From Escherichia phage myPSH2311, in the sequence record MG976803.1: a stretch of DNA of 64,000 nt; one strand, given 5' to 3'. The position numbers were made by a program, and so were the translations under genes. Of this stretch, positions 23,536-59,385 are shown piece after piece (positions within the stretch are counted from its first letter, which is position 1; the number at the start of each line of letters is the position of its first letter). Below the pieces are notes generated by a model. The model saw only the letters and a list, made by a program, of their open reading frames with translations. It made no database searches and was not told the origin of the DNA.

Positions 23536-23812
23536 TAAAAGAAAAGCCCAGGGCTCGTTCAAGTCAAATGATGGGCTAGTCAATTAAGCCCCTTGGGCAT
23601 AGCTGGCAATGCTAGTCACAACTTCTTCATTCATATACCCTCCTAGATTGTGTTTATAAAATTAGTAAGTTTCTCTTCACTTTCATCAAAAGCTTTTCCA
23701 GCTGCTTCCATCTCCCAAGTATCGGCATTGTCAATAAAGCTCTGAGCTTCTAATAGGTCGTGGATTAAGTCGAAGAGTTTATTTTTATCTGCTTGTGTGA
23801 TCATGTCAGTTC

Positions 23813-24079
23813 CTAGATTAAATCGTAATACTGAATAATGTCAGAGAGTTTGAACTCTCGAATCTCATCTTTCTCTACATCTATCGCTGTCATAATCCAA
23901 CAAGGTTTGCCACCGTTATGAAAACGGGAGCTAGCAACGGAGGTTCGGAGTGGAATAACGGACCGGTCAGCAACCTCGCCTCTCCAATTGCGATAGCGAA
24001 AGCGAAGCACTTGTTGCGTAGATTTTTGATCATCACTCATTTCCTTTTTTGAATTGTTTTCTTGCATCATTATTGGCAA
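23813..24079 (-). CDS. Hypothetical protein
   Basis: 88-aa ORF at the distal end of the minus-strand module. Confidence 0.3.
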   Translation of the reverse strand: MPIMMQENNSKKEMSDDQKSTQQVLRFRYRNWRGEVADRSVIPLRTSVASSRFHNGGKPCWIMTAIDVEKDEIREFKLSDIIQYYDLI

Positions 24080-24366
24080 TGCTTAACGTAACTAGCTTGG
24101 GCTTCATGGTCAAGAGGAACTATAGGCTCTATGTGGTCAATAGCCATATCCTTTACAGGGTGGTCAGAACCACACATGGCACACTTAAAGTGCATTGCCA
24201 GTCTACCTGTCTTTGGATTAATCTTCTGCTCTGTCTTGGCGTCTGCTAGTGCATCGAACATGGGCTTCCACTTTCTAGTCAGAGAACGAATCCCTGACTT
24301 GATAAAAGAATTGTAACGAGCTTCAGTCCACATTCCAGAGCATCTAGTCTTCTCAGCCTTCGCCAT
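24070..24366 (-). CDS. HNH endonuclease
   Basis: CAMCGSDHPVKDMAIDHIEPIVPLDH: Cys pair plus DH...N/H pattern typical of HNH nucleases. Confidence 0.5.
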   Translation of the reverse strand: MAKAEKTRCSGMWTEARYNSFIKSGIRSLTRKWKPMFDALADAKTEQKINPKTGRLAMHFKCAMCGSDHPVKDMAIDHIEPIVPLDHEAQASYVKHCQ

Positions 24367-24739
24367 AACCTACACTCATATCATCTTCTTCCCATACACG
24401 TTTATCTACTCGGTGTGATACTTTTTCACGTTTTTCTTTAATATAGCGGTTGCCTAATTCGTGGCTATATTTAATACGCTGCTCTTTACGAGATTCACGG
24501 TTGGAGGAGTTTTCATCATATGAACGATAATCAAATTTACCCATTATAATATCCTTATTACCAAGATTTATCTAACCATGTCCAGTCGAACAGGTCTTCC
24601 GGAGTCTGACCAACAAAGAGCAGCCGAGCATTCTCAAGCATCTTCTCTTCATCTTCAGTATCGAACTTCTTATAATATTCCATTCGTACTATATGATACA
24701 TGGTCCAAGCCTGCATTGAACCGTAAAGCCCTTAGGCTG

Positions 24740-25366
24740 TTAGTTACCACCCCACATAACCTCTTTACGTTCCCCACATCCGGGGATGTTATCCGTACCA
24801 TCTCCAATCAACATTTGATAGAAGAAGTTTTGCCATGAAACTAAATCAGATACGTAATGAGGAGGGACTTCTTTCTGTCTTTCTCCACAAGCCCAGCGAT
24901 AATGCCATCCGGGAGTTATCAACAAATCCTTGTCTCTAGTACAGATGATAGTATTCTTATCCCTACGTTGCCTTTCAGCTAGTGCATCATCAGCCTCTCT
25001 CCCAAAGACCTCAATGTATTCGTACTTGGCTTTAATGTAATCACCAACGTTTTGCCAGTGAAAAGGTCTTTCTCCGGGAGGTCTGTTTGCCTTGTAGTCT
25101 TGTTGCTTAGCAACATCGAAACGGAAGTTACCGCCTTCGCTGAAGTAGAATACAACCTTACTACAACCCGAGCGAGCTATAATTGTATCAATCTTGTACT
25201 GAAGTCGTTCAATCATGAAATTGTAATCAACTGGAACACGTCCTGTGTCAAGGAAGGGATGCTCCTGAGTAAGAGCACCCACTTCATACCGAAGAACGTC
25301 AGCGTCCACTATAGCAACTTCAGGGAGCTTAACTTCTTCCATAAATATCATCCTGAGCTTGAGCAA
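24740..25366 (-). CDS. 5'-3' exonuclease/flap endonuclease family protein (N-terminal nuclease domain)
   Basis: FGREADDALA motif (EADD acidic cluster typical of FEN/5'-exo family). Confidence 0.45.
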   Translation of the reverse strand: MLKLRMIFMEEVKLPEVAIVDADVLRYEVGALTQEHPFLDTGRVPVDYNFMIERLQYKIDTIIARSGCSKVVFYFSEGGNFRFDVAKQQDYKANRPPGERPFHWQNVGDYIKAKYEYIEVFGREADDALAERQRRDKNTIICTRDKDLLITPGWHYRWACGERQKEVPPHYVSDLVSWQNFFYQMLIGDGTDNIPGCGERKEVMWGGN

Positions 25367-26228: not shown

Positions 26229-27470
<1,242 letters not shown>

Positions 27471-29714: not shown

Positions 29715-29825
29715 TTAGATAGTTAATTTGTGATCTTCCTCCGCTCTGTTTCTAACAGAGACGGCTTCTTCTAGGGTTGAGAAAGTTCCTAGGTATTTAG
29801 TTTTCGTTGAAAGGCTTAAGGCTTT
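29715..29825 (-). CDS. AP2-like DNA-binding domain fragment (remnant of HNH/AP2 homing-endonuclease-like gene)
   Basis: Translation KYLGTFSTLEEAVSVRNRAEEDH resembles the Y.G.F.T.EEA AP2 signature; upstream part replaced by GC-rich sequence. Confidence 0.3.
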   Translation of the reverse strand, partial: KALSLSTKTKYLGTFSTLEEAVSVRNRAEEDHKLTI

Positions 29826-30607
29826 TGGCATAGCTGCAAAATGGGCCCGTTAATATGACCCGTTAAAGGCTTTTTTGGCATGCGTAAAAGGCTTGCTTAA
29901 ATTTCCTGCCTCATCACCCCGCCTGCATTTTGTTCCGTTGCGAATTCTCCAGAACACTTTCCCAGATGATAAATCACAAACAAAGAACTCATCCAGAAGA
30001 TCTTCTATCATATCATGCAACCATCGCAAGTTAAGTCACCTAGCAGGGACAGGGAAAGTAATCTGGATTGCTCATCGCTGTATAGTTGATCAATCTCTTC
30101 TTTAAGTTTTGCCAACTCCATAAAGTTAATGAGCTGACCATGTTCGAGGCAGTCTGTTTTTAGTACGAACAAAACTTCAGCGTTGGTTGAGTCTTCACTT
30201 GAGTATTTATCAATGTATTCCATTTTTATGCCACATCTCCTTGTTTGTTGTTAATAATATCCAGTGCTGTATAAGCTTTACCTGTTCCTAAGTATTCCAA
30301 AACTGGAGGACTCTTCTTTTCTTCAGCGACTACATAAGGTGTGATCTTCCCTTTCAGTACAGCCTGAGATGCTTTAGCACTGTCTTCAGAGGTATGAATA
30401 GTAGTAAGCCCTTTCTTTCCAATTCTATAAGTGTGAACCCAAATCATTCTTCTTCCTCATATTCCCAATTTCTTTCATAATATCCAGAGTTATAGTTTAG
30501 GGCGCACTTCTCGGCCTCTTCTATGTCGTCGGTGTTTAGGATATTCACCCACCCTCCAGCTTCATCAAAACCTTCTTCTTCCTCGTTAATCCATACACTA
30601 TATTTCT

Positions 30608-35144: not shown

Positions 35145-36128
35145 TTATGAGCTTAAAGCTCCTTTGCGTGCTCCAGCTGCTTTTCCAGCTCGATCACCAC
35201 TTTTGCCGCCGTTTGAACGGTTTGAGCTGACTGATTCAACACGTAAGTTGCTTGACGCATTAGAGCCTCCAGACTTGACAGCTCGTTTGTGTCCAACGTC
35301 TTTACCTCTGACAGCAGCTTTTCCATCGCGCTTTTCAACGATGCGACGTGCACGGTGGCGCTGAGCATCTCCGCTCTTGCTCCCAATTCCCGTTTCACCG
35401 CGCTTGATCGCAGTCCTTCTTTCTTGTGCATAATCTCTCTTTCCTACATGATCTGCCATTAGATTTCTCCTGTTGGGCAATGACGTTAAACGCCCGTTGT
35501 GGCCCAAAATTGGCGCCCAAAATTGGGGCTTAATGCGTGCGTAATTTTTGGGCCAAATTAAGGCCGTATATAATAACAGCTGAGAGGTTTCTCCCAATCG
35601 AGTCATGATTGAGAAGGCTTCATCTTTAGTGGTGTTCTGGAACTCATCAACAATAACAATAGCATCATTGAAAGAACGACCACGGAGATATTCCAGAGGT
35701 ACAAACTCAATGTTACCATTTCCGATTTGGCATTCATAGAATCCCTTACCATATCGCTGAGTAATAACATCAATGATAGGCATCAGGTAAGGTTCAAACT
35801 TCTCACGCATTCCTCCCGGAAGTAACCCAAGAGAGTTGCCCATGCCGACAGAAGGGCGACTCAGAATGATCTTCTGAATCTTACCGCTCTTCAGTGCATC
35901 AATAACTGTGGAAGTGATTACAAAGGTCTTACCACAGCCCGCAGGAGCGTCTGTGAACACAACTTGTTTAGTCTTAATAGCATTGAGTAGCTCAGACTGA
36001 AACTGGTTCTGAGGGACTACAGGCTTTGCTAAAACCACCTCTTCATACTCTCGCTTACCTTTACGAGTAACAAGTGCTTCCCGACGAAGGTCTTTCCGTG
36101 ATTCTTTCCGTGATTGACGACGACTCAT
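35145..36128 (-). CDS. phoH: PhoH-like ATPase, reading frame runs through a GC-rich insert after the DEFQN motif
   Basis: Walker A APAGCGKT; DEFQNTT...TRLG; downstream translation (LLLYTALIWPKNYARIKPQFW...) is insert-encoded. Confidence 0.5.
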   Translation of the reverse strand: MSRRQSRKESRKDLRREALVTRKGKREYEEVVLAKPVVPQNQFQSELLNAIKTKQVVFTDAPAGCGKTFVITSTVIDALKSGKIQKIILSRPSVGMGNSLGLLPGGMREKFEPYLMPIIDVITQRYGKGFYECQIGNGNIEFVPLEYLRGRSFNDAIVIVDEFQNTTKDEAFSIMTRLGETSQLLLYTALIWPKNYARIKPQFWAPILGHNGRLTSLPNRRNLMADHVGKRDYAQERRTAIKRGETGIGSKSGDAQRHRARRIVEKRDGKAAVRGKDVGHKRAVKSGGSNASSNLRVESVSSNRSNGGKSGDRAGKAAGARKGALSS

Positions 36129-37038
36129 TTACGCTCTCCAATTTCTTCGTAATGACACTCAGTAGTTAAGCAGTCTTTACAGATTGCTGTATAAACCCTG
36201 ACGTTAGTAAATCGTTTGTTCTTCCCTTTGGTTGGAGAGCCTTTGGCAAGCTCTCTGATAACCTTGTTACTTAAATGAAGGTTTGTTCCTTCACATTTAG
36301 AGCACTTCATGGTTCATATCTTTATGAATCCTGTAAACAGCTGTCGCCATACAAGCAACAGCCTCGTTGTGTGGGAGGTGCATCCCTGTAGAACCATCCC
36401 AATCTTTGAACTCATTGTCAAAGACTCCGGTAGGCTCTGGATATAGAGCTTGCAGCTCCACTAGATCATTAGCAACTTGTTGCCATTTATCATCAGACCA
36501 GATAGGGTCATCCAACCAGTAATACAAATAGGAATGGATGATCAATTGCCTTCTATGCCGATTGATTACTTCAGCGGGACTTATCTCACTTCCATTTGAA
36601 GTCCTAAATGTATTACTGTCAATCATTTCACAACCTTAAATTTGAATGTTGTTGGGTGATAATAATGCAACCTATTGATAGTGTGCTTTGTTTCGAGATA
36701 TATCCTGCAAGAGTGGCACATGACATGGGTCAGACCAGTTACAGGGTTAGGTTTGAAGTTGGCGACAGGCTTCTCTTTCTTACAGAAGCTACAGACTTTC
36801 TTTTCCATCTTTTCTCCAGTGGTCAACGAATTGCTGAAACACCTTATGGTCGAATGTGAAACCACGAGCAATCCCACACTCTACGAAAGTAGAAGGCATA
36901 TAGTCTACATCATCTTTAGACGTATGACCATAAACTTGAATAAGCTTTTTAATCTTATCCTTCTCTCTTCGAGGAAGCATCCTAAATGCCTCCTGAATAT
37001 CTGTAATATGTTTGATTTTCATCAGAAAGCCTCTGATA

Positions 37039-37383
37039 TTAACTCTCCAAAGTTTTCTTCAGAGCTGCCCATGAGATTGGGTAGAGCTTAGCCATCTCTT
37101 CATCTACGGATTTAGCAAACACTCGAACTTCATATTGAGCGTGAGATGAGAGTCGCTGACGACACAACTCAAACCAGCCATACAAAGAACCAGTCCACAC
37201 CCACTCAGTGATCATCCCCTGAGGAAGAACAAATCGAGCTTGCTCTGGTGCAATAAATTCAATCAACTTGTCATATGTTGCTAGAGAAGCTTCATATGCA
37301 TCGTTAATCAACATTAATGCTTCAGCTCGTTCTCCGTCGATGAGTTGAATCCCTGAACCTGCATGGTTTGCCCAAAATGGCAT
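37039..37383 (-). CDS. thyX: ThyX, C-terminal half
   Basis: PEQARFVLPQGMITEWVWTGSLYGWFELCRQRLSSHAQYEVR matches ThyX C-terminal helical region. Confidence 0.55.
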   Translation of the reverse strand: MPFWANHAGSGIQLIDGERAEALMLINDAYEASLATYDKLIEFIAPEQARFVLPQGMITEWVWTGSLYGWFELCRQRLSSHAQYEVRVFAKSVDEEMAKLYPISWAALKKTLES

Positions 37384-37451
37384 TGGCGCTATAGCATGGG
37401 GCTTTTTAAATGGCCCCGCGGGTTAATGCTAATGGCGGATTTTGGCCACGG
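37384..37451. other. GC-rich insert splitting thyX into two ORFs in different frames
   Basis: 68 bp between the two ThyX ORFs; composition unlike flanking coding sequence. Confidence 0.55.
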
Positions 37452-37757
37452 TTATGCATGCGTAGGGAGTTCAACTGCTCCATCTTTATACCGCCGGGAC
37501 ATTTCGTTCCACGAGAATCCAACCTGATGCTTGCCCAGCTGTCTCGCAATTGCGATAGGTGCTTTGCATCGGAAACTGACTTGCGGGTGTCGGAATGGAG
37601 TACAGTGTTTTTCCCGTGCAAGGAAGTTGATAAGTTTTGTGTCTCTCTCATTTAAGTCACCTTCTCGAACAACACCGAAAGATACTCTAGCTGCATTGAC
37701 TACAGATTTGTCACTACCCATTGCTTCAATCAGTGTTGCTTGTAGTTGTTCGTTCAA
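37452..37757 (-). CDS. thyX: Flavin-dependent thymidylate synthase ThyX, N-terminal half (gene split)
   Basis: AARVSF...TPFRHPQVSFRCKAPIAIARQ...S(11)...SRRY ThyX-like pattern; ends shortly after SRRY. Confidence 0.55.
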   Translation of the reverse strand: MNEQLQATLIEAMGSDKSVVNAARVSFGVVREGDLNERDTKLINFLAREKHCTPFRHPQVSFRCKAPIAIARQLGKHQVGFSWNEMSRRYKDGAVELPTHA

Positions 37758-39322: not shown

Positions 39323-40135
39323 TATTATCCATTACCTGCTGGGTAATTACGATGCAGTTTAGGCATGGTAATGCGTTTAGGCGTCTTGGGGAGGTGCCCC
39401 CAGTTGCAAGCTGATGCTGCGGGTAAATTGGCGCCATGGGAAACGCGTTAATGCGTGCCTGATGTTATCTTTTCTCATGTGTTGCTCAAGATCCCAAACA
39501 ACATGAATAGCCCACATCTTTTTCATTAGTAATGTACCTTTCCGCTGATATAAACACGACCAGAAGAATACTCCTTGGCCTTATGGATGCTGATACTATT
39601 AACCACGTCACCAGTAAGCATAGTCTTTTTAAAATCTCGAGCTTGTTGACGAGTAGGGAGTGCAGTCATAGTCATACCACCTGATGCCCACTTAATCTTC
39701 GCTAACCAGAATTTTCTCATAGTGATTGGTCTCATTAGTAATAAACCTTACTGTTGACACAAAAAGCACCTTCACTATTCACGATAGCTTTTCCTAATGT
39801 AACCTTGTTAAGTCTAAAAGTAGACTTGTATTGGTTTTTGACCCTACGTGCGTGCTCTCGAGTATTAACAAAATCTACAGCTACTAACTCTCCAGTCGTG
39901 TTATCATGTACACGAACAATCCACTTTTTCATTTTACTAAACCCTTCATGTAGTCATAAAGATCATTAGAAGCTTTACCCCATTCAAGGTGCTTCTTATC
40001 CATATAACGCTTACAGACTTCTTTATTACCTTCATCACAAGTATCAAATCGATGACATGCCCGACCAAATACCATTGCTTTTAACTGAGCATCAGTAGTT
40101 AAATATTTAAGTTCTTGAAACTCTTCTTTATTCAT

Positions 40136-40669
40136 TTACACACCCTTAGATGCAACTACACCTTCAGAGTTATTATAACGACCCTTCACTGCATAGGAGT
40201 GTTCCCCTGCATGAGAGTGCTCAAACATGACCATCTGACCAACACGCATACCAGCACGAACTCGTAAGCTATGATGCTTGGTTACGTTATGGAATTCAAA
40301 TGTCAGCTTACTACTATTAAATCCTGCATCTGCCCAACCGGCGTGAAGGTGGTTCAAACCACAACGAGCCATAGACGAACGCAGAACAAACAGACTTGAG
40401 ATGTTATCTGGAAGATTAAACTCCTCCATAGAGTGAGCCAAGAAGAACTGACCCGGAGTGATAACCAAACCCTCTTCAGGAATCTTTACTTCCTTCCACT
40501 GAAGATTCTCTTTCGCATCAATATCAACGATGCCATCAGCCTGTTCTTCAACAAGGATAGTATCGCCAATACGAATATCCACACTAGCAGCGTTAACATA
40601 CTTATGCTCCGCATCCAGATAGCCATTGTCAATTACATCATGCAGTTCAACACTTCCTAGTAAACTCAT
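40136..40669 (-). CDS. dcd: dCTP deaminase/dUTPase-family protein
   Basis: 177 aa; beta-rich dUTPase-like sequence; RBS AAGGAG before ATG. Confidence 0.5.
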   Translation of the reverse strand: MSLLGSVELHDVIDNGYLDAEHKYVNAASVDIRIGDTILVEEQADGIVDIDAKENLQWKEVKIPEEGLVITPGQFFLAHSMEEFNLPDNISSLFVLRSSMARCGLNHLHAGWADAGFNSSKLTFEFHNVTKHHSLRVRAGMRVGQMVMFEHSHAGEHSYAVKGRYNNSEGVVASKGV

Positions 40670-40696
40670 TCTTGCTCCTTAGTTATTTGTTTCCAT

Positions 40697-40861
40697 TTAA
40701 GCGTGCATATTTTGGCTAATTTTTGGCGTAAAAGTTTTCGCCCAGTGCCTGATTGAACCGGGTCGTAATTATTGCCCGGGTAGTGTTTAAAATGGCGAGG
40801 AATTAACAGCTGAGTGTGGTGCATCAATAACACCATCATCAATTAATTTATGTAACTCTGG
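40697..40861. other. Insert upstream of dcd carrying a diverged duplicate of the dcd start region
   Basis: 45-bp near-identical repeat (40652-40696 vs 40862-40906, 2 mismatches) including RBS and ATG; copy at 40818-40908 encodes MSLLGSPELHKLIDDGVIDAPHSAVN vs MSLLGSVELHDVIDNGYLDAEHKYVN. Confidence 0.55.
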
Positions 40862-40888
40862 ACTTCCTAGTAAACTCATTCTTATTCC

Positions 40889-41266
40889 TTAGTTATTTGT
40901 TTCCATGTCAAAAGAGATTCCACGACCCGCTTCATCGGCAAACCGAACTGTACGGGTTTGAGGTTCTAATACTTCAGGGTTGTTAGCAATAAAGCGATCA
41001 GCGAGACTATCTCCCAAATCTTGTTCCATACCTTCATCAGTCCAGATAACACGAGAAGGGGCGTTGATATCACCAACAGCGAAACCCTGACCAGAGAACT
41101 GACGTGCGCTAACAGTTAAGCCGTTTGGTCGACCACGAGAGGGTCTAGCCATCCATCGCTCCATAGAATCACTTGTAATACCAAGAGCTTCTTCAAAAGA
41201 TGTTCTACGAGTAGGGCTTTCTCTTCGTGACTCTTGTGCTCGACGCATTGCAGGGGCTACAAACAC
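40889..41266 (-). CDS. Probable C-terminal part of the same nucleotidyltransferase, separated by a GC-rich insert
   Basis: Adjacent same-strand ORF after insert 41245-41375; combined length ~430 aa fits family. Confidence 0.35.
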   Translation of the reverse strand: MFVAPAMRRAQESRRESPTRRTSFEEALGITSDSMERWMARPSRGRPNGLTVSARQFSGQGFAVGDINAPSRVIWTDEGMEQDLGDSLADRFIANNPEVLEPQTRTVRFADEAGRGISFDMETNN

Positions 41267-41322
41267 CCCTTCAATTGCAAATTGGCGCCCAATTTGGCAA
41301 TGATTTGCCCCGTTTGTTAAGC

Positions 41323-42183
41323 CTATGCAAATGTGCGCTTTGGCGATTGGGCCAAATTGGCCTGAAGACTAGACATAATCTGAATCTCTTCATAAGGGAT
41401 TCCAAAGAATCGACTCATGTCTCGGTTAACACAATATAGAGCACTTGTTGTATCTTCAATAAGAGAAACCTGACCTAATCCATTGACTAGATGACTAACT
41501 GGCTGAGGTGTGGGAAGATATCGAGTTTGGGCCATGTATTGATGCGCAACTGCTGGAGAGGAAAATCTCAACACTTGTGAGTTAGGCCACTTCTTGTGAA
41601 CATACCTGATTTCACGACTAGAGACAACCACTGGACAAGGGGAAGTCATAGCCAAATATCCGTGAGAAGTCATGAATAAGTTGTCAAGAGTCATCGCACC
41701 ACGGCACATCATAGGAAAATTATCCAATACCTCTTCAATAGAAGTAGGATAATTAAACATGAATTGGATACGAACCCCATTCCACTGAAACTCAATAATA
41801 TCAGTGAATGTTAATTGAGAACCCCCAGCATAGGATTCGTTTGTAGCTTCAGCAAGAAGTGATGCATATTCAATATCTTGTGACTCTAGCCATTCCTTCA
41901 CATTACTTTCAATCTCCCGTCCAAGCTCTTGCCAACGATCAGTTGGGATGAAAGTGTTTTGAGTTCTTGGTGTTTGTCCTCTGACAATAAAGATATCAAT
42001 GTCATGTGGAGCTATGTTATTAAGGACAGCATCACGAACAGCCCCACCAGTAATGATGGGACAGATACCATCTGGAATCAAGTTGTTGTTAATCAACTGT
42101 TCAATGAAGTGACGACCAACAGTGATATCAGGTTGTTGAGCAACCTTATCTTCAATTTGGTTAATCGGGATAACAATCATTTT
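41323..42183 (-). CDS. Pol-beta superfamily nucleotidyltransferase (CCA-adding/poly(A)-polymerase-like), N-terminal part
   Basis: GICPIITGGAVRDAVLNNIAPHDIDIF matches GG.VRD...D.D NTase signature; C-terminal 16 residues are insert-encoded. Confidence 0.5.
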   Translation of the reverse strand, partial: KMIVIPINQIEDKVAQQPDITVGRHFIEQLINNNLIPDGICPIITGGAVRDAVLNNIAPHDIDIFIVRGQTPRTQNTFIPTDRWQELGREIESNVKEWLESQDIEYASLLAEATNESYAGGSQLTFTDIIEFQWNGVRIQFMFNYPTSIEEVLDNFPMMCRGAMTLDNLFMTSHGYLAMTSPCPVVVSSREIRYVHKKWPNSQVLRFSSPAVAHQYMAQTRYLPTPQPVSHLVNGLGQVSLIEDTTSALYCVNRDMSRFFGIPYEEIQIMSSLQANLAQSPKRTFA

Positions 42184-44073: not shown

Positions 44074-44240
44074 ACCAAAATTGCGTGACGTTGGCTAATT
44101 GCTGACGTGGAATGGCCCTGGCAATTGGGATGCCCCGTGTTAGCTGCGATTTGGCGCGTTATTGGCCCCGTGTTTGCAAGTAATGCGCGGGCTTTATGCC
44201 GTTAATGCTGGGTTTATGCGTGCATATTGCTGTGCCAATG
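44074..44240. other. GC-rich insert between primase zinc-ribbon and Toprim coding regions
   Basis: Zinc-ribbon ORF runs into this segment and stops; Toprim ORF begins just after it; composition unlike flanks. Confidence 0.55.
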
Positions 44241-44412
44241 CGTAATGGGTAGTGCCCTTTTCGAACACTTCGTAATTCCCACAACGGTTACAACTCCCCC
44301 ACTCCTCACCAGTCTCTTCGTTACGGAAGAGAATCATGTGGTTGTGGGTTTTATCACGACCATGAGAGATACATTCCTTACAACCTGTGTCTCCCAAAAT
44401 GATCTTTGACAT
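44194..44412 (-). CDS. Primase zinc-binding domain (N-terminal fragment of primase)
   Basis: CKEC...CNRC Cys4 zinc-ribbon; last ~17 residues are insert-encoded. Confidence 0.5.
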   Translation of the reverse strand: MSKIILGDTGCKECISHGRDKTHNHMILFRNEETGEEWGSCNRCGNYEVFEKGTTHYALAQQYARINPALTA

Positions 44413-44590: not shown

Positions 44591-45214
44591 TTAAATACTT
44601 GGCTTCAAGTCTCCGAAGAGCCATGTGGCAATTTTATCTTGTTCTTCGTCGATATGATAAATCCAAGCGATAACAGTTTCACCTGAGTCCATCTTAACAG
44701 CAATCTGAGTACGCTGATAGAAGCTGTCTTCAGGGCTACGTTTGTTGTAACCTTCCAGACGGTCATACGGACCTTCCAGACCTGCTTTGTCAGTAGCAAA
44801 CACTTCTACACGAACAGGCTTGTTGTTATTGCTGTGTGCGAGAGAGATGCTCGGGAAGTAGGAACCACCGTAACGGAACAGATCAAAGTTGTCTAATGGG
44901 CCGTTTTATGCGGTTTAAAGGCCTTGACCAGTGCATTTGCCCGTTAAATGGCGTGGGGATTTCCCAGTGCGGGTGGCCAGTAAACGTGTTTTGTCTTTGT
45001 CAGTAGCAAACACTTCTACACGAACAGGCTTGTTGTTATTGCTGTGTGCGAGAGAGATGCTCGGGAAGTAGGAACCACCGTAACGGAACAGATCAAAGTT
45101 GTCTTCAGTCCAACCTTCACCAATTGACTTAGCACCAGCTCGGTCATTAACTAAATAGTTAGCTTGACCACGACGAAGAGAACCATAAGTTGCTACGTAA
45201 ATTACTTCTGACAT
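44591..45214 (-). CDS. Gamma-glutamyl cyclotransferase (AIG2/GGCT)-like protein, interrupted by 100-bp insert with 110-bp flanking direct repeats
   Basis: N-terminus MSEVIYVATYGSLRRGQAN resembles YGSL...G GGCT signature; ORFs 44915-45214 and 44591-44803 join if 44895-45104 is removed. Confidence 0.45.
44895..44994. other. GC-rich insert flanked by 110-bp perfect direct repeats (44785-44894 and 44995-45104)
   Basis: Exact repeat verified by reading both copies. Confidence 0.6.
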
Positions 45215-45425: not shown

Positions 45426-45478
45426 AAAACCTCCAGCTTATCCGAACTAGCCTCCTCTTTCGAAGAGGCTAAAGCAGA

Positions 45479-46880
45479 TTACTCTGTAATAAAGATTTTG
45501 ATTACACCACAGATTGCTGCACTCTCAAATACTGCAACAGCTTCACTCCCCTGAAAGAAGGCCACTTTGCCGTCAGAGAAGTTAAACATGTCAGCATCTA
45601 GGTCCATAGCTCGCATATCACCAGCGTCGTTAGTATCTTTAAACAGAACTTTATACTTATTCACAGATAGGTCACTCCTTTGTCTTGTTGTGCTTCAGAG
45701 ATGATACGTTCTACACATTCCATAGAATACTTATCACCACGTTTCAGGAAAGTCACAATTGCAGAGAATTGATTACCAATCATTCGCTGATTAGTAATAC
45801 CCCACTCCTCACACAACTTACGCAACTCTTTACGAGAGCCTACAATCAGAGGCTCTTTTTGTTCCATCATTCCATTTTGTACTAGATCTTCCAATGAAAA
45901 CATATCCATATATCCTTAGTAGTTTACAACAGTGCCATCGTTCAGGGTAAGGCTATTAATCTGCAACACACGACCAAGCTGACGATCACTAATTGGTGCG
46001 TTCCATCCAGAGCGGTAGAAGTTACGACCACAGAAGAACAAGATCACATTACTTGCTACAGTCGAACCGTTTTCAGGATGCTTGATGTTAGCGATATAAT
46101 AACCACGACGCAGATTACGACGGGTTACAGGGTTGATCTCTAACCCTTGCTCTTCAACTTGCATTGTTTCAGGAACAGGTTCCGAAGATTCTTCAGCAAC
46201 TGGCTCGGAGCTTTCCACTGACAGTGCGTAATCCTCATCACCTGCTGGTGAAAATGTTTCTTCCACTTCTTCAACAGGAAGTTCGTATGCAACACGATAG
46301 TCAGGCTCAACACCAGAGAAGCTCTTAACAAACTCAACAATATTGTGAGTATAGGTTTCCAGAGTTGTTCCAGTCAGTCCCGGAGCTGTGTTAACTTCCA
46401 GAACCCAAGCGTTAGTATTTTTACTAATCAGGTCAACAGCACCAAAGTTCAAACCCAGAGCAGATACAGCTTTGTGAGCTTGAATCAAAACCTGATCAGG
46501 AGGCGCATCTTGGAAGTTTGAGGAATAAACCCAACCAGTGTGATGATTTCGAACGTCTTCACGATAGGAAGGATCTTCACGGTAACCATTACGACGAATC
46601 TTCTTCTGAACGTAAGTGATAACACCTTCGAATACATGAACACGCCATTCACGATTGGTGAACGATAAGGGAAAGGTCCTTGGCCATAGCGTGGCGTATG
46701 CATGCATGCATGCATAAATTGCGTGTTTTGGGCGCGGTGAACGACTGTTAAAGTGTTAGCTTGACCACGACGAAGAGAACCATAAGTTGCTACGTAAATT
46801 ACTTCTGACATTATCTATACCTTTGTTGGTTTGTTTAGTTTATCCGAACTAGCCTCCTCTTTCGAAGAGGCTAAAGCAGA
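45479..46880 (-). repeat. Tandem repeat unit 3: truncated ATP-grasp copy (45916-46707), 82-aa ORF (45661-45909), 61-aa ORF (45479-45664), plus GC-rich junction and GGCT-start fragment
   Basis: Near-identical to units at 46881-48246 and 48247-49904; truncated copy begins exactly at codons REWRVHV. Confidence 0.7.
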
Positions 46881-48246
46881 TTACTCTGTAATAAAGATTT
46901 TGATTACACCACAGATTGCTGCACTTTCAAATACTGCAACAGCTTCACTTCCCTGAAAGAAGGCCACTTTGCCATCAGAGAAGTTAAACATGTCAGCATC
47001 TAGGTCCATAGCTCGCATATCACCAGCATCATTAGTATCTTTAAACAGAACTTTATACTTATTCACAGATAGGTCACTCCTTTGTCTTGTTGTGCTTCAG
47101 TGATGATACGTTCTACACATTCCATAGAATACTTATCACCACGTTTCAGGAAAGTTACAATTGCAGAGAATTGATTACCAATCATTCGCTGATTAGTAAT
47201 ACCCCACTCCTCACACAACTTACGCAACTCTTTACGAGAGCCTACAATCAGAGGCTCTTTTTGTTCCATCATTCCATTTTGTACTAGATCTTCCAATGAA
47301 AACATATCCATATATCCTTAGTAGTTTACAACAGTGCCATCATTCAGGGTAAGACTGTTAATCTGCAACACACGACCAAGCTGGCGATCACCAATCGGTG
47401 CATTCCACCCAGAGCGGTAGAAGTTACGACCACAGAAGAACAAGATCACATTACTTGCTACAGTTGAACCATTCTCAGGGTGCTTGATATTAGCGATGTA
47501 ATAACCACGACGTAAAGTACGACGGGTTACAGGGTTGATCTCTAACCCTTGTTCTTCCACTTGCATTGTTTCAGGAACAGGCTCCGAAGACTCTTCAACA
47601 ACTGGTTCAGCTGTCAATGCAAAGTTCTCGTCATCTGCTGATTCAGCAAACTCTTCCACTTCTTCAACAGGCAGTTCGTAAGCAACGCGGTAGTCAGGAT
47701 CAACACCAGAGAAACTCTTAACAAACTCAACGATGTTGTGAGTGTAAGTTTCCAGAGTTGTTCCAGTCAGGCCCGGAGCTGTATTAACTTCCAGAACCCA
47801 AGCGTTAGTACCTTTGCTAATCAGGTCAACAGCACCGAAGTTCAAACCCAGAGCAGATACAGCTTTGTGGGCTTGAATCAGAACCTGATCAGGCGGCGCA
47901 TCTTGGAAGTTTGAGGAATAAACCCAACCAGTATGATGGTTTCGAACGTCTTCACGATAGGAAGGATCTTCACGATAACCATTACGGCGAATCTTTTTCT
48001 GAACATAGGTGATAACACCTTCAAACACATGAACACGCCATTCACGAGGTGTAAGCTGCGAATGCGGTTAAATTGCAATGCGTGCCCAAGTGTTTTTGCT
48101 AAGGTGGGTAACATTTACGCGGTCCATTAGTCGTCGTGCAGTTGCGTATAAGTTGCTACGTAAATTACTTCTGACATTATCTATACCTTTGTTGGTTTGT
48201 TTAGTTTATCCGAACTAGCCTCATCTTTCGAAGAGGCTAAAGCAGA
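46881..48246 (-). repeat. Tandem repeat unit 2: truncated ATP-grasp copy (47318-48028), 82-aa ORF (47063-47311), 61-aa ORF (46881-47066), plus GC-rich junction
   Basis: Protein copies differ at a few residues from unit 1; same breakpoint as unit 3. Confidence 0.7.
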
Positions 48247-48432
48247 TTACTCTGTAATAAAGATTTTGATTACACCGCAGATTGCTGCACTTTCAAACAC
48301 TGCAACAGCTTCACTTCCTTGAAAGAAGGCCACTTTGCCATCAGAGAAGTTAAACATGTCAGCATCGAGGTCCATTGCTCGCATCTCACCAGCTGCATTG
48401 GTATCTTTAAACAGAACTTTATACTTATTCAC
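48247..48432 (-). CDS. Small protein (61 aa), first of three copies
   Basis: 61 aa; copies at 46881-47066 and 45479-45664 are identical in protein sequence, the unit-1 copy differs at two residues; followed by conserved hairpin. Confidence 0.35.
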   Translation of the reverse strand: MNKYKVLFKDTNAAGEMRAMDLDADMFNFSDGKVAFFQGSEAVAVFESAAICGVIKIFITE

Positions 48433-48677
48433 AGATATGTTACTCCCTTGTCTTGTTGTGCTTCAGTGATGATACGCTCTACACATTCCATAGAGTACTT
48501 ATCACCACGTTTTAGGAAAGTTACAATTGCAGAGAATTGATTACCAATCATTCGCTGATTAGTAATACCCAACTCCTCACACAATTTACGCAACTCTTTA
48601 CGAGAGCCTACAATAAGAGGCTCTTTTTGTTCCATCATTCCATTTTGTACTAGATCTTCCAATGAAAACATATCCAT
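48429..48677 (-). CDS. Small protein (82 aa), first of three copies
   Basis: Conserved in all three repeat units. Confidence 0.35.
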   Translation of the reverse strand: MDMFSLEDLVQNGMMEQKEPLIVGSRKELRKLCEELGITNQRMIGNQFSAIVTFLKRGDKYSMECVERIITEAQQDKGVTYL

Positions 48678-48683
48678 ATATCC

Positions 48684-49904
48684 TTAGTAGTTTACAACAG
48701 TGCCATCATTCAGGGTAAGGTTATTAATCTGCAACACACGACCAAGCTGACGATCACTAATTGGTGCGTTCCATCCAGAGCGGTAGAAGTTACGACCACA
48801 GAAGAACAAGATCACATTACTTGCTACAGTTGAACCATTTTCAGGATGCTTGATGTTAGCGATATAATAACCACGACGCAGATTACGACGGGTTACAGGG
48901 TTGATCTCTAACCCTTGCTCTTCAACCTGCATTATTTCAGGGACAGGCTCCGAAGACTCTTCAACAACTGGCTCGGAGCTTTCCGCTGATAGTGCGTAAT
49001 CCTCATCACCTGCTGGTGAAAATGTTTCTTCCACTTCTTCCACGGGAAGTTCGTATGCAACACGGTAGTCAGGCTCAACACCAGAGAAGCTCTTAACAAA
49101 CTCAACGATGTTGTGAGTGTAGGTTTCCAGAGTTGTGCCAGTCAGGCCCGGAGCTGTATTAACTTCCAGAACCCAAGCGTTAGTACCTTTGCTAATCAGG
49201 TCAACAGCACCGAAGTTCAAACCCAGAGCAGATACAGCTTTGTGAGCTTGAATCAGAACTTGATCAGGAGGCGCTTCAGTGAAGGAGTTAGAATAAACCC
49301 AACCAGTATGATGGTTACGAATATCTTCACGATAGCTTTCCAGTTCACGATAACCATTACGACGAATCTTCTTCTGAACGTAAGTGATAACACCTTCGAA
49401 CACATGAACACGCCATTCACGACGTGGGCCTTGGATGCCTTTGGTGTACAGAGGAGCATCCGCAACACCTTCTCGCGGAAGACGAACAGTGATCCCCTCA
49501 CCAGAGTGACCAGTCAAGGTTGCACGTTCATAAACAATTTCATTCCGGTTCCAGTTCTGAGCTACTTCACGATCTACGGTGTATTCAACAGTTTTGACTT
49601 CAGCTAAACGCAGTGCGTTAAATGCTGCAACTTTGTTAGCGGCTCGGTTCAAGGCAACCACAGAGTTCAATACAGTTGCACCGCCAAAGAAAGAATCATT
49701 ATATCGACGGTTTCCATAGTTGACAACAATATCACCAACTCGAGAACGATAACGAGAACCCTCTGATACCAGAGACATTACGTTAGCATTTAAGCGAAGT
49801 TCCTGAATCTTAGTTAACGGGTTACATGATGCGTTTAAGCCTGTTACCGTGGCGTTAAATCGGGTTAAGTCAGTCGTAGTGCGTAGTGACTTGTGTGATG
49901 GCAT
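48684..49904 (-). CDS. ATP-grasp family ligase (full-length copy)
   Basis: 406 aa; C-terminal half contains GAVDLISKGTNAWVLEVNTAPGLTG (ATP-grasp EVN..PG signature). Confidence 0.5.
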   Translation of the reverse strand: MPSHKSLRTTTDLTRFNATVTGLNASCNPLTKIQELRLNANVMSLVSEGSRYRSRVGDIVVNYGNRRYNDSFFGGATVLNSVVALNRAANKVAAFNALRLAEVKTVEYTVDREVAQNWNRNEIVYERATLTGHSGEGITVRLPREGVADAPLYTKGIQGPRREWRVHVFEGVITYVQKKIRRNGYRELESYREDIRNHHTGWVYSNSFTEAPPDQVLIQAHKAVSALGLNFGAVDLISKGTNAWVLEVNTAPGLTGTTLETYTHNIVEFVKSFSGVEPDYRVAYELPVEEVEETFSPAGDEDYALSAESSEPVVEESSEPVPEIMQVEEQGLEINPVTRRNLRRGYYIANIKHPENGSTVASNVILFFCGRNFYRSGWNAPISDRQLGRVLQINNLTLNDGTVVNY

Positions 49905-50353
49905 AGGTAACCTACGCCTATATGTACGTGACCACAGTCAGTACGAAGTCCCTTGTTCTGAGAAGTGGGGGACGGATTTTTCTGACCAGTGAAAGCGTTG
50001 AAGTCAGGAGTACATCCAAAGATGAACGCTGATTCATTAAAGGTCTTCATTTCTTCTTCGGTGAAGATGTGAGAGCTAACACCCGGAGCTGTTTCCATGT
50101 CCAGTTTGTTCAGGACATTATTGGTAAGATCGATACCACGTTGCATGTTATCGTTAAACGCTTCAAAACCGCTCTGTGGGTCGATATCAAACTCAGCCAG
50201 TACGTTGTCCTCTTGAAGACGAACATCTTTAGCCAGAGTGATCTTATCGTCCTTAGAACAGCCTAATAGACCAGCTACAGAGGTGATGATACCATTACTG
50301 GTACGAACGAACATTTCAGGGTCAGAGCCGATAAGGAATTTGCGCTTAGTCAT
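49865..50353 (-). CDS. Hypothetical protein (possible ligase-associated)
   Basis: 162-aa ORF overlapping neighbours; no confident motif. Confidence 0.3.
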   Translation of the reverse strand: MTKRKFLIGSDPEMFVRTSNGIITSVAGLLGCSKDDKITLAKDVRLQEDNVLAEFDIDPQSGFEAFNDNMQRGIDLTNNVLNKLDMETAPGVSSHIFTEEEMKTFNESAFIFGCTPDFNAFTGQKNPSPTSQNKGLRTDCGHVHIGVGYLCHHTSHYALRLT

Positions 50354-51327: not shown

Positions 51328-52527
51328 TTATTTTCCTAAAAATAATCCGCTCATAACACCATCCCACTCAGAGGATGGAATCACTGAATACTCCGAACTT
51401 TGGTCCAGAGTCCCACTACTAAATCGCTGAATAATGTTGTAGATGTTGAACAGGTCTTTAGCCTCGGCACGAATGCCGTAGATTAACCTGTTAGCTGTTC
51501 TCTCATTTTTAGACACGCGACGGGTAAAGTTAATCAGAAGGTTGTCACATTTCAGGATTTCCGATTCACTCTCTACTAAGTCGGGGTGCATCACCGGCAA
51601 GAACATCGAGTTATTAACTCGTAATTCTGCTGTTTCATCATTCTCATAATGAATCCACTTAAAATCTTCATCACGGAAATGACCGCATCCATCCCTATAC
51701 GACTGTTGACGCCAAGGCACTTGAAATGCTTCAGCATATTTATCAGCCATACCAACTGTAAACAGTGACGCTGGGAAGATACAAGCATCCCAATCATTAC
51801 CGACCAGAGTTGCTTTCGTTTCGCCCAAGAGGTTGGTGTAGGTGCTAACCATTCGTGAGTAAACGTAAGCCTGAAGGATTGTCCAGCCTTCAACCAACCA
51901 TTTATGAAGGAAGGTTTCCACTTGGCTCTCTTCATCTTCAAAATAGAAGGTTCGATCTAACATCAAATAGAACAGACAACGATCAGCAGGAACATTCTCA
52001 GTTGCTACACCCATAAAACCTTTTTCGTGCCAGCGTAAACAGGAGGGACGATCTTTGTCCACAAATGCTTCCATAGCTTCCAGTACAGCACGAGGTGTGG
52101 TTCGGTGTTCAGGGTTTTTGTCGTTCCAACGTTCGATGTTATTTTTAGGAGGTGTGTCTTCATCTTCATATGAACACCAACTTAAAGCTTCAGCTACGTG
52201 CTTTTCATCACGCCAGCGTCTGAAACCTAACATCTTCATGTGAGTTCCGGAGTTCCAGATATGCTTGATTTTACACATATCCATTTCTCGGCTTAGCCGG
52301 AACTCTTCTCCATCAGCACTACGAACGTTAGCTTCTTCATGCCACACTCGAACGTGCATATTCCACCCATGAGTTGCCTCATAAGTGTTAGGTTCAAAAT
52401 ATTCATCATACTCTTCATCGTCTTCATCAACGCCACCGTTATAGTTGCGAAGCTGAAGGAACCCATAACAAGGGGGGTTGACCGTTAAAACATTACCTTC
52501 AGTATCTTCTAATGTTACTGGAAACAT
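51328..52527 (-). CDS. Hypothetical protein
   Basis: 399-aa ORF, acidic N-terminal region. Confidence 0.3.
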   Translation of the reverse strand: MFPVTLEDTEGNVLTVNPPCYGFLQLRNYNGGVDEDDEEYDEYFEPNTYEATHGWNMHVRVWHEEANVRSADGEEFRLSREMDMCKIKHIWNSGTHMKMLGFRRWRDEKHVAEALSWCSYEDEDTPPKNNIERWNDKNPEHRTTPRAVLEAMEAFVDKDRPSCLRWHEKGFMGVATENVPADRCLFYLMLDRTFYFEDEESQVETFLHKWLVEGWTILQAYVYSRMVSTYTNLLGETKATLVGNDWDACIFPASLFTVGMADKYAEAFQVPWRQQSYRDGCGHFRDEDFKWIHYENDETAELRVNNSMFLPVMHPDLVESESEILKCDNLLINFTRRVSKNERTANRLIYGIRAEAKDLFNIYNIIQRFSSGTLDQSSEYSVIPSSEWDGVMSGLFLGK

Positions 52528-52538
52528 TATACCAACCT

Positions 52539-52901
52539 CTATTGGTTTTTAATTAACTCAATCGACTTACGGATATAAAGAATATCTCGGAAGTTTCGAT
52601 AGTTGTTCATAAATTGGTGCTTCTGGAAAGTAGCTTCTTCCAGCGCTTTCTTTGCTTCTGCGTAGCTTTTACGGGCAAGATGTACAACCCGATCTGGTAG
52701 CATGTTTGCATGACGGATGACATACTTGTGAGCTTTCATGTTGCTTTGCTCACGAGCAATCTTACCTTTAGCAACTTTGATACCATTTGCAATCCAAGCA
52801 AGTTCTTGCTCAAGCTCATCGTTGGACATTCCACCGAGGTTTGATGCAACCTTGTTCAGAGTTTCAATATTAACGTTGCCCTTGATGGGACGTGTATTCA
52901 T
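52539..52901 (-). CDS. Hypothetical protein
   Basis: 120-aa ORF. Confidence 0.3.
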   Translation of the reverse strand: MNTRPIKGNVNIETLNKVASNLGGMSNDELEQELAWIANGIKVAKGKIAREQSNMKAHKYVIRHANMLPDRVVHLARKSYAEAKKALEEATFQKHQFMNNYRNFRDILYIRKSIELIKNQ

Positions 52902-53072
52902 ACTTACTCCTGTTGTTTACACTCGTCAATAACCCACTGATAAGTGGATTGCCCAGAAAAGAAACACTGAATAAATCCAGATGTTCTCTGCGTTACCAGT
53001 GCTAGTGCACAAATCACTACCGCTGCTGCTAGCAGTTTTAAATCTAATTTAGACATATTTCCTCTCGTTGAA

Positions 53073-53100
53073 TTTAAAAAAGGACTCTCCGAAAAGAGTC
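53073..53100 (-). terminator. Rho-independent terminator
   Basis: Minus-strand GACUCU-UUUCGG-AGAGUC hairpin followed by CUUUUUU. Confidence 0.6.
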
Positions 53101-53282
53101 AAGCTTTAAATACAAAAAGATATTACCCAATATCTGTGGATAACCTGCTCTTAAAATATCTATCCGACGGATGTTTGAGGAACACTCCTCGCCCTAGCAT
53201 CGGCCCCATACGGGAAATATATTAAGATTAGGTTAGTTGAGTCAGAATAACTCACATAGCCCTCCGAAGAAGGCTATAGATG

Positions 53283-53750
53283 TTACTCTACCTTAACTGA
53301 AGGACAGTATTTCTCTTTCTTGCTGCGATACATCACAACAATCCAGTTTGAATCACGACGTTGCTTTTTAAGTCGTTTCTTTTCGGCACGAATTTCGTAT
53401 GTGCTATCTCGGCGATCTCGGAGTTTGTCACGCACCTTAGTTAAAAGCCACGTTGTACCAATTATGAAACCGACTAAGCTTCCAGCAGCACCTAAACCAA
53501 CCATAGGAGCAGCAAACCAAGTCCACCATACAAACGTACCTGCTGTATCGTGCCCCATCAGTGAGCCTCCGATAAGACATAACGCTACATATACCATAGC
53601 GGATAGCACTATTAATACAGCAAAGTTTTGAACTGTTCGCCAGAAGTATTCACAGAAGTTGGTCATGTTGTCCCAATGATAATTGGGTAGGTTTGACATA
53701 TATTTGTTGAATCTGTGCAACCAGCCGTTCTTGTTAATCTTGATCATCAT
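53283..53750 (-). CDS. Membrane protein
   Basis: 155 aa with two or three hydrophobic segments and basic C-terminus. Confidence 0.35.
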   Translation of the reverse strand: MMIKINKNGWLHRFNKYMSNLPNYHWDNMTNFCEYFWRTVQNFAVLIVLSAMVYVALCLIGGSLMGHDTAGTFVWWTWFAAPMVGLGAAGSLVGFIIGTTWLLTKVRDKLRDRRDSTYEIRAEKKRLKKQRRDSNWIVVMYRSKKEKYCPSVKVE

Positions 53751-54235
53751 TCGCCTTTCTTAGCACGATCTTTGGCAGTTTTGCCAGTGCGGATGCGATG
53801 AGAAACGTTAACCAGAGTGCCACCATCAACTACGGTAACGCTCTTGTTTTTAGCCAGATCAAATACAGTCTTCTCTGTGCCACCCAAGCGAATTTGCTTA
53901 GGCTCACTGAAGGTTTGGGTTGATTTGGATTGGAACTGGAACGGTTGACGGATTGCATCGATTGCGCTTACTTTAGACATAGTGGAAATTCCTTAAAAAG
54001 TTATGGCTGCGTAGAGGGAATTCTCTACGCAAATTGGACCGCCTAAAAAGAGGCGTCATAGTACTAAAAATAAGGCGTAGCGTAGTAGAGATGAGTCAGC
54101 ATGTAATGCGTGATGACGTCGTTTTTCGTCCGTATTACAAACCAGATAATTGAACCGTCAGGCTGGCGTTGACCGAAGCCTTTCTGGTTGATCATATCAT
54201 CATAAGAATATGCTTTTGTTTTCACTTACTTACCC

Positions 54236-55026: not shown

Positions 55027-55338
55027 CTATTTAAGTTTGAGGCTAATGTTAAGGTGCATACATGCTCTGTTCTGTACAGCAGCATAACTTCTACCGAGCA
55101 TGTCAGCCATTCTCTGAATAGACATGAACCCAGCATTACGGATAAGGAACTGGTCCTCTTCTTCAGACCATTTAACTCGGATTGAAGCTCTTGATATGCC
55201 GAATTTAGTGCAAGCTGTGTTAACAGCATTCTCCGTTACATTCATAATCTGAGCTACTTCTTGAACCGAGTACTCTTTGATTAGTCTCCGAAGATTTTCA
55301 ATCTGCATCGGAGTCCATATAGTTCTTCGTGCTTTCAT
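55027..55338 (-). CDS. Myb/SANT-like helix-turn-helix DNA-binding regulator
   Basis: Two W...EED...L repeats (WTPMQIENLRRL and WSEEEDQFLIRN) with HTH-like segments. Confidence 0.4.
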   Translation of the reverse strand: MKARRTIWTPMQIENLRRLIKEYSVQEVAQIMNVTENAVNTACTKFGISRASIRVKWSEEEDQFLIRNAGFMSIQRMADMLGRSYAAVQNRACMHLNISLKLK

Positions 55339-56600
55339 ACATCCTCCAATTAATTGTTAAAACTATCAGGGGAGAACACTAGCTCTGGGCCACGCTGTAG
55401 ATATCGGCCTACCTTCCACAGCTAATCAGCTAATATACTCCCCTAATAGTTTATGAATAGGGGGAGGGGACGAATCCTCCCTTATCCTATTAGTTAATAT
55501 TGCATGTAAGATCTAACAATCGGTTGCCTTTGTAGGAATAAGCGTAAAGCCAATCCAGCACTAAACTCCCGCCCCCTTAGTGGGCTGGGTTATTAAAGGG
55601 TAACGCCCTTATGGGCTAGTTACATGAATGTTAGTTTGATAGGAGATCTGAAGTCCTATCTCAAAGGACTCTCGTAAGAATCCTTCACGATATTACTTAT
55701 TCATCTCTCGTCGGCTATCTCTCCAAGCCAACCAAGTGTAGGTTTTCAGTTCTTCAAAGTCTTCTGGAGAGAATAGATACTCTTTGAAGGTGTTCCCAAA
55801 CCACTCTAAAAATTCTTCAGTCATGAGTCCTCATACAGTGATCTGAGTCGTTTGAACGAGCTGAGTTTCAGGAGCTTCTGAGTCATGCCAGGATGTCGTA
55901 GTCGTGATGTTTTTAGTGAGGACCAATTCAGAACTTACGAGCACCACAGCAAGGAGAGTTGACATAAGAGTAACCAGCTTGTGTATTCTTGATTGTTTGC
56001 TTAGACATTTGAGCTTCCTCTTGTTAGTTTAGGTAAACCACCCCAATCACTGCTGCACTCATTCATGTGGAATGCAGATGGGAAAAGTAATTAAAGGTGA
56101 TTTACCTAAAACAACAAAGGCCACCCGAAGCCAGCTAAGCTACTGACATTGCATGAATCCAAAAGCCTTCCAGTTTCAGAGCACCATTAGCTACTGCATC
56201 CATACGTTCAGGGCGGTTCATACGTTTGGTTGATACTTTCATACCTATCTCTCTTTGTTAGTGGAGGCATTATTGCCAGTTGATATAAGGGATAGCCCTA
56301 GTCAGTAGACTAATCCTGACCGCGTACTCATTGCCGACCTTCTCTGCCTAAGAGTTCAGGTTCTAGAGCTATCTCTTATTCCAACTGGTGAAGACTCCCT
56401 ACCCCTAGGAAGTCTCCTGAATCCCAAACTAATACGTACCCCTACATATCAGAAAGTCTTTCGAAAATTAACAGGTTTTAGTCTAGCACCGGATGTTCGA
56501 GCAAGCTCTCCCTAGCGGTGTGGCATATGCCTGAATTAATAAGTTAATGAGGAACACCCTCACATAGCCCTCTGATAAACACAAGGGCTATAAGTCGATG

Positions 56601-59268: not shown

Positions 59269-59385
59269 AATCTTATTCCTTTCAGTGATAAGTTATATCG
59301 GGCAAGCCCATCAAGGCGATAGGCTTGAACAAATAACTTAATCAAGTAAACTAAACGATTTCCAACTCTTTTTTACGGTGCCCGA

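Follow-up and report, generated by a model that had tools for sequence, protein, structure and literature searches.

The nucleotidyltransferase (NTase) gene that reads as two open reading frames in the genome record of Escherichia phage myPSH2311 (MG976803.1) has very probably been interrupted by the filler of an assembly gap in a draft pseudo-molecule, and not by any real feature of the phage. We analysed the gene within a 64,000-nt stretch of this record (hereafter, the window), to whose positions all coordinates refer. Most likely, the phage itself carries an ordinary, intact NTase gene, identical to that of ES17.

The initial annotation had proposed that an ORF with a Pol-beta-type NTase signature (GGAVRD...DIDIF) is cut short and that a downstream ORF would supply the missing C-terminal ~120 residues, and both proposals hold. 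The motif-bearing frame, ORF1, lies on the minus strand and runs from an ATG at 42180 to a TAG at 41325-41323 (285 aa, beginning MIVIPINQ...). ORF2, also on the minus strand (41266..40889), encodes 125 aa if read from a GTG and 119 aa if read from its first ATG at 41248, from which point it is 100% identical to the annotated protein AVP40152.1 (PSH2311_055, 119 aa, 40889-41248). ORF1 matches positions 1-274 of the 457-position profile PHROG 12715 'nucleotidyltransferase' (E 1.4e-165). When the downstream frame was tested for homology to an unrelated family, it was instead found to match the same profile, at positions 314-457 (E 1.3e-47), such that profile positions 275-313 are the counterpart of the stretch replaced between the two frames. 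Since both frames match one profile, and since the homologous gene is a single ORF in ES17 and SkaterBoy_Bas90 (437 aa, 1,314 nt) as well as in myPSH1131 (457 aa), ORF1 and ORF2 are halves of a single Kuravirus nucleotidyltransferase gene. The genes of this region are all on the minus strand, with a primase/helicase and a DNA polymerase exonuclease subunit upstream and a dCTP deaminase downstream. The parts of the region are as follows.

41363..42180, minus strand: natural 5' part of the NTase gene (codons 1-272 plus 2 nt), bearing the motif; 100% identical to ES17_73, matching PHROG 12715 positions 1-274.
41280..41362, no strand: patch of 83 nt, very probably filler, in place of 105 nt of conserved coding sequence and holding the premature TAG at 41325-41323; delimited by exact comparison with ES17.
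40889..41279, minus strand: natural 3' part of the NTase gene (ES17 codons 308-437 plus stop); 100% identical to ES17, matching PHROG 12715 positions 314-457.
40797..40888, minus strand: duplicated 5' end of the dCTP deaminase gene with the intergenic region, ES17-type allele; identified by overlap in ES17 coordinates.
40697..40796, no strand: a further filler, 100 nt long, where two contigs meet; no counterpart in ES17 or SU10, with a flank overlap of ~110 nt in ES17 and the k-mer style of filler.

The lower end of this region contains a further join. The match to ES17 from position 47727 onwards starts at window position 40797, and 40401-40696 corresponds to ES17 47541-47836, so that the two stretches overlap; 40797..40888 is where the contig bearing the NTase gene ends without having been merged. 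A 30-aa ORF (40787..40879) falls in this duplicated dCTP deaminase segment.

Compared base by base with ES17, the window has 83 nt (41280-41362) in place of the 105 nt of that phage, with perfect identity on either side, from the start codon to window position 41363 and then from 41279 to the stop codon. This comparison narrows the anomalous stretch from the 41245-41375 originally delimited. Nor does its original description as a GC-rich insert survive: 83 letters without a homologue replace 105 nt, and GC content is nearly the same in the patch (49.4%) and in the natural 105 nt (48.6%), against 42.5% for the window overall. GC-richness is a trait of that part of the gene and not of any insert. 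As a consequence of the replacement, the gene is 22 nt shorter than in ES17 and its frame is shifted; this length difference, together with the TAG within the patch, causes the 437-aa NTase ORF to read as two ORFs.

The natural segment that has been replaced ranks with the best-conserved parts of the NTase protein. It encodes HGSxQIxAYWSEGLTNLTTNTGGDLLGRExEPNRHNAIEG, which was present in all homologues read, down to ~80% identity. The region as a whole is 93-100% identical to ~70 genomes of Kuravirus (phiEco32-like) coliphages, with ES17 the closest. None of these ~70 genomes and none of 44 protein clusters contained the patch; the gene was either one continuous ORF or carried point nonsense mutations elsewhere. 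Similarly, when the ORF1 protein was used as a query, all 44 clusters aligned to residue ~274 at most, and the patch-coded tail was never matched.

The patch was equally without relatives in larger collections. Neither 50,697 phage records nor 5,426 complete E. coli genomes contained a match to the 83 nt, and the latter result led us to reject host DNA or a chimeric contig as its source. Patch 24-mers and one 27-mer were absent from IMG/VR, JGI metagenome contigs and GTDB species genomes, where a flank 26-mer searched as a positive control did retrieve Kuravirus contigs; unlike the patch, the NTase flanks match 60-100 Kuravirus genomes. A concatenation of 19 such patches from the window (1,916 nt) likewise gave no match at E<=0.01 among the 50,697 phage and 5,426 E. 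coli genomes. A structured RNA, a tRNA or a self-splicing intron was rejected on the basis of an Rfam scan at chance level (best E-values of 4-6, all far below gathering scores, the best, E=4, lying outside the patch), an ARAGORN search of the region that returned no tRNA, and a predicted fold energy no better than that of shuffled sequence (z = -0.2). We also rejected a family of repeats or mobile elements: the patch has no second alignable copy within the window, and the motif GCCAAWTTGG, only mildly enriched with 12 matches against 7 expected, reached 12 in 4 of 100 shuffles and defined no alignable family. Within the window, the patch is best matched at 35473-35574 inside the PhoH gene, a stretch of similar odd style that is another filler.

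Patches of this kind recur across the whole window. Its comparison by BLAST with ES17 and SU10 left ~20 short unmatched segments, to which a comparison with a sister record adds five, for a total of ~25. Six patches are exactly 100 nt long (23211-23310, 37367-37466, 39360-39459, 40697-40796, 44895-44994 and 55837-55936), six others measure 94-102 nt, and the remainder 12-169 nt; 100 Ns are the usual spacer between overlapping contigs. At the joins, flanks placed on ES17 either overlap one another (-81, -110, -110, -223) or leave out as much as ~1 kb, and in the block 45435-49814 one ES17 region is stacked in three copies of 92-100% identity with spacers between them.

The composition of the spacers is unnatural yet not uniform. 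The tetramers GCGC, GGCC and CGCG are enriched 9-10x in the patches, and AGAG, GAGA and GAAG are depleted >10x; runs such as GCATGCATGCATGC and GTCGTAGTCGTAGTCG were also seen in them. In a leave-one-out Markov comparison of filler with natural sequence, 18 of 19 patches scored positive, that is, as filler, and the NTase patch scored 0.238 per base, higher than all 3,000 natural 83-mers (maximum 0.099).

Other genes struck by patches include ones that the phage needs. The major capsid ORF (2406-2741) stops within a patch (2656-2754) that stands for 210 nt of the gene, the patch at 584-595 stands for 76 nt of the portal gene, and patches also fall in the genes for the tail fibre, PhoH and primase. 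Infection experiments have been done with phage myPSH2311, which was also propagated and imaged (PMC6437105); no phage that can be propagated and imaged could have such capsid and portal defects. The breakage of these essential genes in a viable phage therefore argues that the patches are not biology.

A further line of evidence comes from the sister record myPSH1131 (MG983840), of the same laboratory: long blocks of it are 100% identical to the window and have identical break points. A second copy of the NTase gene in that record has identical flanks around the natural 105 nt, and its intact 437-aa ORF agrees with ES17_73 at 437/437 residues. Moreover, five small patches of the window (14-36 nt) correspond to 67-96 natural nt in myPSH1131.

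At least one filler is found in GenBank itself, because the deposited protein AVP40183.1 (PSH2311_086, 196 aa) ends in filler-coded residues: its residues 1-160 match a natural 299-aa homologue, 36 unrelated residues follow, and the divergence begins exactly at the filler at 60657-60752. From this protein we infer that the NTase patch is likewise in the deposited record. Of ten filler-containing ORFs looked up among NCBI proteins, nine were absent, including the 285-aa NTase ORF and a 327-aa PhoH ORF; four neighbouring filler-free ORFs were present (AVP40150, AVP40151, AVP40152 and AVP40154). These absences can be ascribed to the annotation of MG976803, which has 89 CDS only.

The published assembly route suggests how the patch may have arisen. 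The myPSH2311 genome was assembled as CLC scaffolds and then treated with CONTIGuator2 (PMC6437105), and CONTIGuator puts Ns in the gaps between contigs (PMC3133546). MG976803 is a pseudo-molecule in which de novo CLC scaffolds were ordered on a reference by CONTIGuator, with runs of N between contigs. Under this model, 105 nt of the NTase gene would have been left unassembled, the patch would stand where a run of Ns once was, and the gap would now be filled by 83 arbitrary letters. The true phage sequence would be expected to be 22 bp longer than the record and to encode ...SLHGSGQIHAYWSEGLTNLTTNTGGDLLGREEEPNRHNAIEG... We also considered whether the length of each filler equals the gap in the reference, and no simple rule fits, with either ES17 or SU10.

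Some properties of the patch speak against filler. It is 83 nt long and not the tell-tale 100 nt; one of its frames is open, continuous with ORF2 and contains 'GLTN' like the natural protein; and natural NTase truncations occur in other Kuravirus contigs, such that a biological split is not impossible. We count the open frame and the GLTN as coincidence, given that 27 stop-free codons arise by chance with a probability of ~0.27. A divergent allele of the linker was considered as well: the -1 frame of the patch reads SSGQFGPIAKAHICIGLTNGANHCQIGRQFAIEG, in which SGQ and GLTN recur as in the natural protein, with differences that look synonymous. This candidate was ruled out by the lack of any homologue with that version, by the filler-like composition, and by the same ~27% chance of 27 stop-free codons.

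Among the rival explanations, genuine recombination would have replaced the 105-nt linker by an 83-nt segment of an unknown donor, leaving either an NTase pseudogene or an enzyme made of 285 aa and ~120 aa pieces. The clean flanks, the downstream frame that stays open through the patch, and the SGQ and GLTN that this frame shares with the natural linker would all fit such an event. So would the in-frame stops at codons 306, 346 and 355, in the C-terminal third, in independent Kuravirus contigs and the split NTase gene of phage XT32, from which it appears that C-terminal loss is tolerated in nature. If the event were real, the patch would be in line with the natural nonsense truncations carried by three metagenomic contigs, a hint that the C-terminal third of the NTase may be dispensable or counter-selected. 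However, the donor is absent from every collection searched, the segment lost is among the protein's most conserved parts, the unnatural composition is common to ~18 other patches, including exact 100-mers and those that break capsid and portal, and the same contig is intact in myPSH1131. We consider recombination very unlikely. Still more improbable, in our estimate, is that the letters were entered during preparation of the window, for instance in place of Ns, in which case the public record would have Ns at 41280-41362. The absence of nine of the ten filler-containing ORFs from NCBI proteins, with their four filler-free neighbours present, is what such a substitution would produce; against it, AVP40183.1 carries 36 residues encoded by the filler at 60657-60752, and the 89 annotated CDS account for the missing ORFs. 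Owing to these filler-coded residues we largely reject this explanation, and even if it were correct the patch would still be an artefact.

The least credible explanation, to which we give hardly any weight, invokes a small element, either mobile or involved in recoding (candidates being a mini-intron, a MITE, an intein-less insert, a -1 frameshift or a bypass), that would allow full-length NTase still to be made. ORF2 does lie in the -1 frame relative to ORF1 and overlaps it, with a CCA AAG site in the overlap. Nevertheless, no heptamer of the X XXY YYZ type is present, conserved residues were removed rather than sequence added, and the patch is found in no relative; the Rfam, tRNA, folding and copy-number results given above stand equally against an element of this type. 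A programmed -1 frameshift or bypass was accordingly rejected for want of a canonical slippery heptamer, conservation and structure. Filler at an assembly gap thus remains the explanation that we favour.

Turning to the enzyme itself, the initial annotation had regarded such a CCA-adding or poly(A)-polymerase-like protein as uncommon in a phage, a view that does not apply within the genus Kuravirus: all of its genomes that were examined carry the gene, with an existing annotation as nucleotidyltransferase, and the enzyme is an ordinary member of this known family. The annotation of SU10_074 states that it 'contains nucleotidyltransferase domain of class II CCA-adding enzyme'. GGAVRD (residues 45-50) and DIDIF (residues 60-64) are invariant in 14 homologues. 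The PolyA_pol head domain (PF01743) was detected at residues 43-125 with 17.8-22.2 bits in the window ORF, ES17 and three homologues, below the cut-off of 23; ORF1 of the window alone scored 19.7 bits against the same cut-off. Scans of the NTase with Pfam and NCBIfam returned no RNA-binding neck, body or tail domain and no NCBIfam family, and neither sequence nor profile searches returned a relative in the PDB. An AlphaFold2 model built from 14 close homologues reached a pLDDT of 31.8 and was unusable. For Gad2 (PF26128), an anti-Gabija NTase, our own hmmscan of five family members gave no hit at E<=10; precomputed PF26128 hits are listed for many NTase homologues and are marked weak or faint in contig tables.

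The interruption of the NTase gene is, on the filler explanation, biologically unimportant and a defect of the record, and its relevance is to data quality. The ICTV species Kuravirus myPSH2311 has MG976803 as its exemplar (PMC12451628). Although labelled as a complete genome, the record is a stacked and gapped pseudo-molecule in which ~2 kb of letters are made up, contig ends are duplicated and blocks are triplicated. Scans of MG976803 will go on yielding false findings such as genes that look split, GC-rich inserts, duplicated starts of genes and tandem repeats, and species demarcation by identity is also unreliable where it makes use of this record. MG983840, the record of myPSH1131, has similar problems.

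Comparison with known systems is consistent with this assessment. Split genes such as T4 gene 60 with its bypass, or those divided by homing elements, offer a surface likeness in the form of a coding gap between two gene halves; the gap in myPSH2311 differs from them in having no conservation, no structure and no matching take-off and landing context, and in being absent from all relatives. The class II nucleotidyltransferases, comprising CCA-adding enzymes and bacterial poly(A) polymerase, share with the Kuravirus protein the GGxVRD...DxD signature and a weak head-domain match, and differ from it in their RNA-binding neck, body or tail domains, none of which was detected in the Kuravirus NTase. 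The closest likeness in the layout of the record is to the N-filled pseudo-molecules produced by ABACAS and CONTIGuator: unmatched spacers, many of exactly 100 nt, stand at contig joins, the flanks of joins in the window overlap or skip, and alternative contigs are stacked in tandem, the difference being that the spacers of myPSH2311 consist of letters and theirs of Ns. As for the gene, the natural parts in the window are 100% identical at the DNA level to ES17_73 (QPL11118.1) and belong with SU10_074 (AIF71826.1) to PHROG 12715, at the same position between the DNA polymerase exonuclease subunit and the dCTP deaminase; the split of the ORF in the window would set it apart from these Kuravirus genes as a defect of the record and not as a variant of the gene.

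The kind of filler found in the nucleotidyltransferase (NTase) gene recurs along the window, at the following positions:

584-595, 2656-2754, 5775-5883, 19436-19449, 21511-21535, 22264-22403, 23211-23310 and 23550-23617, filler patches
24072-24099, 24708-24743, 26403-26428, 35473-35574, 37367-37466, 39360-39459, 40697-40796 and 44080-44248, filler patches
44895-44994, 46655-46748, 48052-48147, 49815-49911, 55837-55936, 59368-59502 and 60657-60752, filler patches

We found no homologues of these further patches, most of which share an odd k-mer style, and many are about 100 nt long and positioned at contig joins or gaps. Patch 55837-55936 obtained a natural-like score in the k-mer test, and its assignment as filler is therefore less certain. 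ORF ends, 'inserts' and 'GC-rich islands' reported at the coordinates of filler patches should be taken as artefacts.

Essential genes in the record are disrupted in this manner. The major capsid gene (window 2406-2754) is cut by filler containing a stop in the reading frame, while in the portal gene 12 nt of filler (584-595) stand in place of 76 nt. These two defects prove that MG976803, as it stands, is not the genome of a viable phage. A further ORF is affected as follows:

35145-36128, PhoH-like ORF of 327 aa, running through the filler at 35473-35574 into an unrelated frame

At this join, approximately 1,040 nt are missing relative to the Kuravirus genome ES17, or 239 nt relative to a second one, SU10.

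Larger rearrangements were also observed. The segment that follows contains repeated sequence:

45435-49814, three tandem copies of ES17 52052-53751 (an ATP-grasp enzyme gene and its neighbours), with fillers between the copies

The copies are 93.6%, 91.8% and 99.8% identical to ES17. Rather than a genuine triplication, they seem to be alternative contigs, derived from more than one Kuravirus genotype, that the reference-ordering step placed one after another. The 5’-end of the dCTP deaminase gene shows an apparent duplication at 40670-40888, where a short ORF is found:

40787..40879, ORF of 30 aa (MSLLGSPELHKLIDDG...), adjoining the real dcd start at 40669

Here the ends of two contigs meet across the 100-nt filler at 40697-40796; they share an overlap of about 110 nt, but one end has the SU10-type allele and the other the ES17-type allele. 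Separately, a 294-nt stretch (29724-30017) is absent from both ES17 and SU10, which are collinear at the flanking point; filler style is not obvious in this stretch.

Among relatives, C-terminal indels give members of the NTase family lengths of 392 to 457 aa, and single in-frame stops occur in the C-terminal third of the gene in three independent metagenomic Kuravirus contigs:

L004 2047-3357, NTase gene with TGA at codon 306
L006 1918-3279, NTase gene with TAA at codon 355
L008 1951-3285, NTase gene with TAA at codon 346

In phage vB-EcoP-XT32 (P0067, P0084) the gene is split near the N-terminus. Relaxed constraint on the C-terminal part is one possible explanation; another is that the stops and the split are assembly errors. 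Precomputed Pfam matches to PF26128 ('Gad2') are listed for most Kuravirus NTases in the protein collection (P0027-P0066; L004, L008), and hmmscan of five members of the family against local Pfam-A returned no PF26128 match; a link to anti-Gabija Gad2-type nucleotidyltransferases is a possible but unverified lead.

The sister record myPSH1131 (MG983840; L012+L013) has blocks that are 100% identical to parts of the window, and its break points are the same. It also contains duplicated or triplicated blocks, two NTase copies of different alleles (the second at 51824-53385) and junction pieces. Some of these pieces lack homologues, and others are made up of short Kuravirus matches patched together; examples are:

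23201-23304, 36444-36543, 55168-55277, 64515-64614 and 68562-68661 of myPSH1131, junction pieces of about 100 nt

This record is a chimeric pseudo-molecule similar to that of myPSH2311, and the two 'phages' probably had contigs in common or came from a mixed lysate. MG976803 and MG983840 are the exemplars of the ICTV species Kuravirus myPSH2311 and Kuravirus myPSH1131, new in 2025 (PMC12451628), and in view of the condition of both records, the identity-based demarcation of these species merits re-examination. The stacking seen at 45435-49814 is present in myPSH1131, as is the same dCTP deaminase join, although there the filler of the window is replaced by 100 nt with homology to a small gene that lies some 1.8 kb away (ES17 45968-46066).
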